34,867 nt of DNA from a virus (taxonomy: Duplodnaviria; Heunggongvirae; Uroviricota; Caudoviricetes), in the IMG/VR virus record IMGVR_UViG_2684622580_000006; one strand, written 5' to 3'. The position numbers and the translations under genes are program-made. Below are positions 5,957 through 7,493 of the stretch, piece by piece. The first letter of the stretch is position 1, and every line of letters starts with the position of its first letter. Below the pieces are notes generated by a model that was not told the origin of the DNA, ran no database searches, and saw nothing but the letters and a program-made list of their open reading frames with translations.

Positions 5957-6049
5957 AAATTTATATTATCTAATTTGAACAGCATCAAGTTGATGAATCG
6001 GACTAAGCAGATATGTAATTAACACCATCAGCTTAGTCTACATATAGCT

Positions 6050-6058
6050 TGTTATAAT
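6050..6058 (+). promoter_or_regulatory. Extended -10 promoter element TGtTATAAT
   Basis: Perfect TATAAT (6053-6058) preceded by TGn, in the 340-bp AT-rich gap upstream of the TIR-like cassette. The -35 is weak. An 8-bp inverted repeat (gactaagc 6001-6008 / gcttagtc 6031-6038) sits over the -35 region. Confidence 0.4.
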
Positions 6059-6309
6059 TTTTTACGACTCAACGAAGTCTTGTTAGGATAATGTAAACAA
6101 ATCCGTTTTTTTAGATGTGAGTAATATTAGCAATGTTCATCTTAGAATGTGATATCGAAGGAAACTCGAAAATGATAATAGCTTTACACTATTGAGAAAA
6201 TTTGGTTGAGGCTTCAAAATAGAGCATTCATACGTGATCAATAGCCAGACTAAGCAAGCAACAGCTAAACCCCGTAACGTACTGATTAAATTGATAATTG
6301 AAGGTGCAT

Positions 6310-6597
6310 ATGTTAAAAGTTACTGGTCTTGATAAGCTTCAGAAAGAACTCAAGGATGCAAAGCGTATACTGAGTGAGCTGGATGGCGAGCTAGGAGTCG
6401 TAAAGTTTAACCCTAACGACCCTGCTAGCATCGAGTCGGCAATTCAAACAGTTAATCACATGATTGATGAACGCATTGGCGGATGTTCAACCAACTCCAT
6501 AGTCGGCTCGCTTGCGCAGCAGATGAAGGAAACATACAGAGAAGGCATTCTTAAAAAAGCTGCCGAAGCCAGATTGACTTCAAGTGAGGATGAGTAA
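6310..6597 (+). CDS. Small protein (95 aa), partner of the TIR-like protein
   Basis: ATG at 6310 with aaggtg SD (the track ORF starts at TTG 6298). Stop overlaps the next ATG (TAATG at 6595-6599). The N-terminus LKVTGLDKLQKELKD is reminiscent of HK97 gp10-type tail-completion proteins (weak). Confidence 0.6.
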   Translation: MLKVTGLDKLQKELKDAKRILSELDGELGVVKFNPNDPASIESAIQTVNHMIDERIGGCSTNSIVGSLAQQMKETYREGILKKAAEARLTSSEDE

Positions 6598-7493
6598 TGG
6601 CTCAAGATATTTTTTCTGAAATGAACAATGCTGTTCTGGATTTACAGGCTTCACAATACCAGACCTTTGAACGTCCACTCAAAAAGCTTGCTCAGCTTCT
6701 AAAACATTCCGATCTTGAATCATACAATGCAGACCTGACTGAAGGACTCAATCTTACAGAGTTTCTCGCAGAAAGTGAGAAGACTGGAGGAAGTATGGCT
6801 GGGAGTGCCCAGCTTGTCTGGCCAGATGATGCAAGAAAAACACTAGGCCTTACATTACTTTTGATTTTTAAGTTAGCAGAAGATCCTAATTATGCAATCA
6901 ACTTTGGACATCATTTTTTCTATTCCGGAAGTAAAGTTATAGCAGGCATTCATTCGATTACAGGACAACTTATCATTCCTTTCGTTAGAGATTACAAAAA
7001 TTATGTTCAGTCTAAGGGAAGCACAGAAACTATGTTGAAGCCGCAGTTTTCGAACAAAGTTTTCATTGTTCATGGTCATGATGATGGCGCCCGTGAAACA
7101 GTCGCAAGGTTTCTTGAACGTATAGGTTTAGAAGCAATCATATTACATGAGCAAGCTAATCAGGGACGAACTGTCATTGAGAAAGTTATAGCAAATAGTG
7201 ATGTTGGATTTGCTGTTGTATTGCTAACACCAGATGATGAAGGTTGTGCTAAAGGAGGAATACCAGAACCAAGGGCAAGGCAGAATGTAATGCTAGAATT
7301 AGGATATTTTATCGGGCGTTTAGGCAGAGAGAAAGTATGTGCACTAAAACGCGGCTCACTAGATATTCCAAGTGATTTTGCTGGGGTTGTTTGGGAAAAT
7401 ATGGATAGCAGTGGAGGCTGGAAGCAAGCACTCGCACGAGAACTTGAAGCTGCTGGTCACAATATTGATTGGAATAAAGCAATGCGGAGTTGA
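6597..7493 (+). CDS. Two-domain protein: unknown N-terminal domain (~150 aa) + C-terminal TIR-like nucleotide-binding domain (PF10137 / Cap12-PycTIR type)
   Basis: 298 aa. KVFIVHGHD...ARFLERIGLEAIILHEQANQGRTVIEKV...FAVVLLTPDD...RARQNVMLELGYFIGRLGREKVCAL...IPSDFAGV matches the conserved blocks I recall for the bacterial TIR-like family. SD gagga lies 6 nt upstream. Confidence 0.7.
   Translation: MAQDIFSEMNNAVLDLQASQYQTFERPLKKLAQLLKHSDLESYNADLTEGLNLTEFLAESEKTGGSMAGSAQLVWPDDARKTLGLTLLLIFKLAEDPNYAINFGHHFFYSGSKVIAGIHSITGQLIIPFVRDYKNYVQSKGSTETMLKPQFSNKVFIVHGHDDGARETVARFLERIGLEAIILHEQANQGRTVIEKVIANSDVGFAVVLLTPDDEGCAKGGIPEPRARQNVMLELGYFIGRLGREKVCALKRGSLDIPSDFAGVVWENMDSSGGWKQALARELEAAGHNIDWNKAMRS

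Follow-up and report, generated by a model that had tools for sequence, protein, structure and literature searches.

What triggers a TIR effector when no nucleotide-signal synthase is encoded beside it? This question is raised by a two-gene cassette in a 34,867-nucleotide stretch of Caudoviricetes DNA (IMG/VR record IMGVR_UViG_2684622580_000006), which is called the window here. The element hosting the cassette is an Escherichia coli prophage integrated beside ybiT. Gene A of the cassette encodes a 95-amino-acid (aa) protein of the YuaX family, and gene B encodes a 298-aa protein with a TIR domain in its C-terminal half. An earlier interpretation from the letters of the DNA alone (the sequence-only reading) had proposed a self-contained sensor-effector module that operates without a synthase. 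That architecture is borne out by the pairing of YuaX with one domain of gene B, by natural fusions, by the exchange of effectors and by DNA similarity that is limited to the two open reading frames (ORFs). The cassette is probably a self-contained, horizontally mobile two-gene abortive-infection system that is carried as prophage cargo.

In the product of gene B, a helical N-terminal domain (N-domain) is connected by a linker to a PF10137 TIR domain, which is followed by a conserved C-terminal tail. The sequence-only reading had named the TIR-like family, and the Pfam search recovered it (CAP12-PCTIR_TIR; E=4.8e-38; 130.3 bits, with the cut-off at 24.7; positions 1-118 of the 119-position profile); the peptide blocks quoted from the protein were all present. 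Gene B aligned to the solved Cap12/TIR-STING structures 9lmq and 7un8, where E234 was paired with the NVVFEFG glutamate of both the SfTIR-STING (7un8) and the Cap12 (9lmq) chain. The glutamate of the NV..E.G motif is catalytic in TIR-STING/Cap12 proteins, and E234 is predicted to be its counterpart in gene B. In 48 homologs, E234, HGHD159-162, TPDD211-214, RxRQNV226-231 and PSD258-260 were invariant. The PADLOC search recognized only the TIR half of the cassette, as the single-gene candidate PDC-S35. Five PDC-S35 profiles matched gene B (E=1e-40 to 9.6e-71, residues ~128-295), with alignments running from profile positions ~70-115 to the end and leaving the N-terminal ~100 positions unmatched. 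The function-unknown PHROG phrog_16442 also matched the TIR half. The C-terminal tail is common to the single-gene PDC-S35 proteins, and both the PDC-S35 and the phrog_16442 profiles reach residues 290-295. Weaker matches were obtained with PADLOC TIR effector models, including the PycTIR model over the TIR core (E=1e-8), and gene B scored 31-36 bits with the NCBIfam Cap12 equivalog models, whose cut-off is 450.

The N-terminal ~140 residues of gene B, which the sequence-only reading had found unrecognizable, matched no family in the Pfam, NCBIfam, PHROGs and PADLOC libraries. Structure prediction gave an all-helical fold, and the residues D15, L16, Q17, G69, W75, P76, P128, F129, R131, D132 and Y133 were invariant. 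Neither the N-domain nor YuaX resembled STING, SAVED, cyclic nucleotide monophosphate (cNMP)-binding, SLOG or Macro domains in sequence or fold. A comparison of the N-domain with HEPN proteins was kept as a weak lead only, the His of the Rx4-6H motif not being conserved.

For the product of gene A, no match was found in PHROGs, PADLOC, NCBIfam or a Pfam library that was searched without PF27363. The protein has 167 homologs, and all 120 among the matches listed, including a 99%-identical homolog (P0121), bear a precomputed PF27363 annotation with the name YuaX. The AlphaFold2 model of YuaX alone consists of three helices, with a predicted local distance difference test (pLDDT) score of 76. The suggestion that its start resembles HK97 gp10-type tail proteins was rejected, since there was no Pfam or PHROG match at E<=0.1 or 0.01, the model has three helices and the best Foldseek match to the viral structures of BFVD reached only E=0.26. 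An identity with PADLOC PDC-M14A was likewise rejected because no PADLOC model matches YuaX. Gene A has an alternative start, TTG at 6298, that would extend the product to 99 aa. Both coding sequences are annotated by RefSeq in identical E. coli prophages, and they overlap at TAATG as had been described. Among related loci, 30 have a T[AG]ATG overlap at the junction, 4 have genes overlapping by 11 nucleotides (nt) and 5 have genes separated by 2 nt, and genes A and B are likely to be translationally coupled. Mean identity was lowest for YuaX (0.63), intermediate for the N-domain (0.68) and highest for the TIR domain (0.82), a gradient that fits a faster-evolving sensing surface.

The distribution of gene A indicates which part of gene B it belongs to. 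In a search space of 5.8 billion proteins, gene B has thousands of full-length homologs with 80-98% identity; those with 80-85% identity are spread over the Proteobacteria and include proteins from Serratia, Yersinia, Pseudomonas, Vibrio, Halomonas, Bordetella, Xanthomonas and Desulfuromonadaceae. One genome per species was taken for a locus scan, which gave 80 loci. A YuaX gene was located directly upstream in 45 of the 45 species loci that encode the N-domain, whereas none of the 35 loci sharing only the TIR half had one, indicating that YuaX tracks the N-domain and not the TIR domain. DNA similarity between loci starts about 20 nt before gene A and stops at the stop codon of gene B. This confinement to the two ORFs indicates that nothing else travels with the pair.

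Natural fusions provide a second line of evidence. The N-domain alone was compared with 1.84 billion cluster representatives in a full HMMER scan; 254 relatives were obtained, and the best 150 were analyzed. About 22 of these best 150 representatives were fusions in the order YuaX, N-domain and C-terminal domain, which is Rosetta-stone evidence that YuaX and the N-domain act as one unit. When a natural fusion was cut to its YuaX and N-domain parts, ten helices were predicted (pLDDT 91.2, predicted template modeling score 0.69), and the model had no significant match to solved or viral structures.

The same N-domain is joined to different effectors. Among the best 150 representatives, 29 had PF10137-like tails and 52 had other tails, which fall into at least 24 sequence groups. 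The alternative tails include TIR_2, matching PADLOC spbK (E=2e-14), Hypoth_Ymh, matching PADLOC Aga_HEPN and PD-Lambda-3_B, DUF4145, 2TM-like tails and many short tails that end in a hydrophobic or glycine-zipper helix. YuaX was again encoded directly upstream where the N-domain protein was unfused and bore a TIR_2, DUF4145 or unknown tail. Such effector swapping on one module is typical of abortive-infection systems. Tentatively, YuaX and the helical N-domain may constitute a previously undescribed, widespread sensor module that directly recognizes a cue derived from a phage or mobile element and drives at least four classes of cell-killing effectors (PF10137 TIR, TIR_2, HEPN-like and membrane-disrupting). 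PADLOC PDC-M14B weakly matched the end of the N-domain and the tail of some N-domain relatives (P0343, P0254 and P0387; E=1e-6 to 4e-11), and PDC-M14 may be a sister system.

The TIR domain is exchanged in the opposite direction as well. Single-gene PDC-S35 proteins of Pseudomonas are 78-80% identical to gene B over the TIR domain and C-terminal tail and have an unrelated N-domain and no upstream partner (loci L046-L053, ~7570-8460). This level of identity combined with unrelated N-domains indicates recent shuffling of the TIR domain between sensor types. At another locus (L073), the N-domain on the same TIR domain is a response-regulator receiver domain. The possibility that YuaX or the N-domain represents a split form of the PDC-S35 N-terminal region, both having a helix followed by an 'FDP' motif, was rejected at an hhalign probability of 2.6-6.9%.

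The pair is common outside phages. Even partial matches to the cassette were found in only 5 of 50,697 phage records, and the nearest neighbors across the 45 species were enriched in integrases, resolvases, ParB, genes of integrative and conjugative elements (ICEs) and GajA. In Pseudomonas aeruginosa, the pair is carried by ICEs of the PAPI-1/ExoU-island type, where it adjoins Gabija (GajA and GajB). PAPI-1 islands of P. aeruginosa in general have been reported to contain defense hotspots, with Gabija as a frequent occupant (PMC12629846). A YuaX homolog overlapping a gene annotated as 'nucleotide-binding protein' is encoded by about 1000 IncF plasmids from Klebsiella, E. coli and Salmonella. 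The pair on the F plasmid of E. coli K-12 (WP_000538310.1 and WP_000963206.1; NC_002483.1, 41216-42395) is 51% identical to the window proteins for the large protein and about 46% for YuaX, and only 49 bp separate it from the end of pifA, the pair and the T7 exclusion locus pifC-pifA being in convergent orientation. On Klebsiella chromosomes, the pair follows a P4-like integrase beside ychF. The contexts in Vibrio are variable. At three Vibrio loci with otherwise differing contexts (L103-L105, 7611-8576), a 61-74-aa ORF and a 182-aa ORF, both of unknown function, are located upstream of the pair, which suggests a larger co-moving unit in this genus. Two copies of the TIR gene carry traces of insertion sequences (ISs). 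In E. coli PSS-15, one of the seven related prophages, IS2 is inserted between the N-domain and the TIR domain (L106, 2248-4480). On one IncF plasmid (L089, 7275-9739), the TIR gene encodes a shortened product of 274 aa, and an ISEc23 transposase gene starts 27 bp after the annotated end of the TIR gene. Such IS damage fits a costly gene, although the evidence is anecdotal.

This residence on mobile elements also suits a toxin-antitoxin or addiction module, in which a labile YuaX antitoxin would neutralize the TIR toxin and stabilize the carrier, with phage defense absent or secondary. The conserved overlap of a small first gene with a larger one is found in type II toxin-antitoxin operons too, the pair occurs almost only on mobile elements (the IncF plasmids, ICEs and prophages), and it lies near vapBC on Klebsiella plasmids and near ccdAB on F. 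The IS disruption and truncation of the TIR gene would be expected of a costly toxin. However, the covalent fusions are difficult to reconcile with a mechanism that requires degradation or departure of the small protein, and YuaX, which follows the N-domain and stays with unrelated effectors, cannot directly neutralize the active site of each. In addition, no DNA-binding family was detected in YuaX by Pfam and PADLOC profile scans. The fusions and the retention of YuaX beside unrelated effectors fit a sensor that stays attached, and they speak against a labile antitoxin of the classical kind, which would block the active site of a toxin. Fused toxin-antitoxins do exist (CapRel), and the antitoxin part there is the phage sensor. 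An addiction module is considered unlikely as the explanation of the cassette, although on plasmids and ICEs addiction is to be taken seriously as an alternative or additional function.

The sequence-only reading had reported no cyclase, cNMP-binding domain or ThsA-like partner, and the neighboring ORFs agree with this: among the window ORFs at 1785-13929, no cyclase, cNMP-binding, SAVED, STING, SLOG or ThsA-like gene was found. Nor was a linked signal synthase detected at the 45 species loci, as judged by conserved DNA and neighbor families. The cassette might nevertheless be an orphan signal-dependent effector, with YuaX and the N-domain serving as the receptor for a small molecule made elsewhere. 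Candidate signals are a host second messenger, a nucleotide made by the phage, or a product supplied in trans by Thoeris, by the pyrimidine cyclase system for antiphage resistance (Pycsar) or by the cyclic oligonucleotide-based antiphage signaling system (CBASS). The characterized PF10137 TIR proteins that surfaced in this analysis (Cap12 and TIR-STING; 9lmq and 7un8) are all nucleotide-activated. There is also a precedent in a cyclase-less TIR-SAVED effector, which reportedly defends by sensing host cyclic di-AMP (bioRxiv 10.1101/2025.06.19.660554). Against this stand the dissimilarity of the N-domain and YuaX to the nucleotide-sensing domains compared above and the lack of a linked synthase at the species loci. 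Moreover, the pair moves alone among very different hosts at 80-85% identity, which would be easier without a host-specific signal. Dependence on such a signal is judged improbable.

The preferred reading, a two-gene abortive-infection system, leads to the following scheme. TIR NADase effectors are a well-known bacterial route to abort phage infection, and the effector in gene B, a TIR domain of the CAP12/Pycsar type, would hydrolyze NAD+ upon oligomerization. The helical N-domain would replace the nucleotide-binding sensor of CBASS and Pycsar effectors and form one unit with the co-translated YuaX. In the resting lysogen, this unit may hold the TIR domains apart or inactive. The YuaX/N-domain unit would recognize a cue that arises when another phage infects the cell; this cue would most probably be a protein of that phage or a change that the phage induces. 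The unit would then rearrange and let the TIR domains assemble, and the resulting collapse of NAD+ would leave an infected cell that no longer supports phage growth. CAP12/Pycsar TIR proteins become active NADases by oligomerization (bioRxiv 10.64898/2026.04.30.722052).

Several points weigh against this reading. Distant relatives do not always show the pairing: one group with ~30% identity stands behind a G2L4-type reverse transcriptase (RT) without YuaX, and one further unfused N-domain member lacks YuaX. The pairing claim is thus limited to the closer relatives and the fused forms. PDC-S35 is a candidate system only, and its profiles cover just the TIR half. To our knowledge, all characterized PF10137 TIR effectors are activated by nucleotide second messengers. 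An addiction module would account just as well for the occurrence of the pair on plasmids, ICEs and prophages. No publication describing the pair was found in the literature outside subscription-only sources, including under PDC-S35, YuaX and pifB. Finally, the cassette is present in all seven E. coli prophages related to this one, so that the lineage offers no example of a phage that dispenses with it. Its status as a moron, proposed by the sequence-only reading, rests on the occurrence of the pair in other mobile elements (plasmids, ICEs and integrase islands), not on presence or absence inside the prophage lineage.

The RT-linked N-domain relatives (L107, 145-2235, and L108) have a membrane-type tail and lie directly downstream of the RT gene. 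The RT is close to the group-II-intron-like G2L4 RTs (PDB 9d5x, E=1e-68), and together with the N-domain relative it may form another two-gene system, one in which this domain has been reused.

In a further explanation, the cassette benefits the phage or mobile element, either as a regulator of prophage lysis or packaging or as an anti-defense enzyme directed at messengers derived from NAD or at signals derived from TIR, SIR2 or CBASS, which it would destroy. The cassette is located between the lysozyme and small terminase genes, it is present in all seven prophage relatives, and it is 91-95% identical across them, compared with 76-82% for their structural genes. This explanation is very improbable, given that the cassette is common outside phages and rare, even as partial matches, in the phage records, that the HEPN-like and membrane-type tail swaps fit cell-killing effectors and not signal-degrading enzymes, and that the TIR match falls in an effector clade.

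The prophage itself is rare. Identical (100%) copies of the 3-kb region around the cassette occur in four complete E. coli genomes, and the region is carried by only 7 of 5426 E. coli genomes. No close relative of the prophage at the DNA level was found among the 50,697 phage records. An IS3-family element splits the prohead protease/major capsid gene in two strains, 2017.06.05CC and E-93 (window 18054-20030; L001 32655-35967), whose prophage copies are probably defective; the cassette is nonetheless intact in both. The window copy of this gene is intact. The related prophage of E. coli MS 115-1 carries a cassette with 95% identity (NZ_CP146665.1, 3138732-3141469). Strain MS 115-1 is the source of a well-studied type III CBASS.

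The flanks of the cassette had been described as two AT-rich noncoding stretches of ~340 bp. The lengths were close to this, with 353 bp upstream (5957-6309) and 339 bp downstream (7494-7832), but only the upstream flank (32-35% GC) was clearly AT-richer than the cassette (38-43%); the whole prophage ranges from 33 to 44%. The extended -10 motif TGtTATAAT is present where the sequence-only reading placed it. It has no -35 partner and was missed by a two-hexamer scan, promoter-like sites in the region were not enriched (3 observed against 5.4 expected in shuffles), and the motif is not kept at other loci, where DNA similarity starts at about 6290. No Rfam family was found in the window. A promoter or regulatory RNA belonging to the cassette was rejected on these grounds, the motif lacking statistical support and conservation. 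The terminator scan returned 2 sites against 1.3 expected in shuffles, which is weak evidence for the hairpin at the end of gene B. The cassette with its flanks is enclosed by a 20-nt AT-rich inverted repeat of 85% complementarity (5948-5967 and 7577-7596), which may have arisen by chance in AT-rich DNA or be a recombination scar.

The position of the pair was originally given as lysis-to-cos. A lysozyme gene and a terS-like gene do flank it (Table 1), but the best PHROG of the lysozyme was of the baseplate-hub/tail-lysozyme type (E=1.3e-26) and better than its endolysin match (E=8e-20). The lysozyme gene adjoins two divergently transcribed genes and may encode a virion-associated enzyme and not a lysis enzyme. 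Between the small and large terminase genes lie ~5.6 kb of low-GC DNA (8373-14033), with a minimum of 26% GC at 9001-9400; this stretch may be a second accessory-gene region.

Table 1. Features of the cassette and of neighboring genes, with positions in the window
Feature	Position	Strand	Remarks
Serine recombinase	1785-3290		Left end of prophage
Baseplate-hub N-terminal domain gene	4215-4862	-	Beside lysozyme gene
ORF without family match	4862-5437	-	Beside lysozyme gene
Lysozyme gene	5471-5956		PF00959; upstream of cassette
Extended -10-like motif TGtTATAAT	6050-6058	+	~250 nt upstream of gene A
Gene A, YuaX-family protein	6310-6597	+	95 aa from ATG; RefSeq WP_000922096.1
TAATG stop/start overlap, genes A and B	6595-6599	+	
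Gene B	6597-7493	+	298 aa; RefSeq WP_000046021.1, 'TIR domain-containing protein'
N-domain of gene B	6597-7016	+	Residues 1-140; predicted all-helical
CAP12/Pycsar-type TIR domain	7056-7406	+	Residues 154-270; PF10137
Glu234 codon	7296-7298	+	Predicted catalytic glutamate, in NVMLELG
Conserved C-terminal tail	7407-7490	+	Residues 271-298; W275, L279 and E282 invariant
Terminator-like hairpin and T-run	7486-7507	+	Consensus scan; overlaps gene B stop codon
Small-terminase-like gene (terS)	7833-8372 (annotated)		phrog_57, E=5.7e-20; downstream of cassette
ORFs of unknown function	8769-9245, 9342-9848, 9845-10567		Between terminase genes
ORF of unknown function	10656-11264	-	Between terminase genes
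NUMOD3 homing-endonuclease-like gene	12427-13041		Between terminase genes
GntR-type regulator	13528-13929	-	Between terminase genes
Large terminase gene	14034-15923		

The TIR half of the cassette is already flagged by PADLOC and the YuaX family is in Pfam; the N-domain is without a family. If the proposed reading holds, a PF10137 effector is under the control not of a nucleotide synthase but of a compact protein sensor, in which a 95-aa protein is combined with a ~140-aa domain. Reuse of this sensor with several toxic effectors would be the signature of a general-purpose infection detector. The pair would then define a new defense-system family that includes a second phage-exclusion system on F beside pifA and also covers the copies on Klebsiella IncFIB/HI1B virulence-type plasmids and P. 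aeruginosa ICEs. The cassette turns up very frequently in replicons of clinical importance, namely F-type plasmids from E. coli and Klebsiella as well as P. aeruginosa ICEs and prophages, and may therefore have a bearing on phage therapy and plasmid biology. The copy on the textbook F plasmid makes the cassette easy to test, and identification of the trigger would introduce a new principle of sensing in bacterial immunity.

Among known systems, the Cap12, TIR-STING and TIR-SAVED effectors of CBASS (7un8 and 9lmq) share with the cassette the PF10137 TIR family and the NV..E.G glutamate. By analogy, degradation of NAD+ after oligomerization and abortive infection would be expected in common as well. 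The cassette differs in having no CD-NTase and no STING or SAVED domain; a helical N-domain and a separate 95-aa protein stand in the place of the sensor. PycTIR of Pycsar is also a PF10137 TIR effector, whereas the cassette has neither a pyrimidine cyclase nor a cNMP-binding domain. The single-gene candidate PDC-S35 of PADLOC has the same TIR domain and C-terminal tail. The cassette is distinguished from it by its own N-domain (hhalign probability below 7%), its two genes and the upstream partner.

SpbK of ICEBs1 and ThsB of Thoeris resemble the cassette as TIR proteins of mobile elements that act in phage defense. A portal-like protein of the phage triggers SpbK, which acts as a single protein. 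The TIR domain in the window is of the PF10137 type and not TIR_2 or ThsB_TIR, and there is no ThsA-type effector; the PADLOC and Pfam searches gave no ThsB_TIR or ThsA match for the window proteins. PifA/PifC, the T7 exclusion system of the F plasmid, is a physical neighbor of the F pair without homology to it, PifA being a KAP P-loop NTPase. CapRel(SJ46) is reportedly a fused toxin-antitoxin that acts as a direct phage sensor. The folds and the toxin are unrelated, that of CapRel being a tRNA pyrophosphokinase and that of the cassette a predicted TIR NADase. The likeness lies in the prophage-borne location, in the fusions with a small partner and in the proposed logic, by which an autoinhibitory module would double as the direct sensor of the phage.

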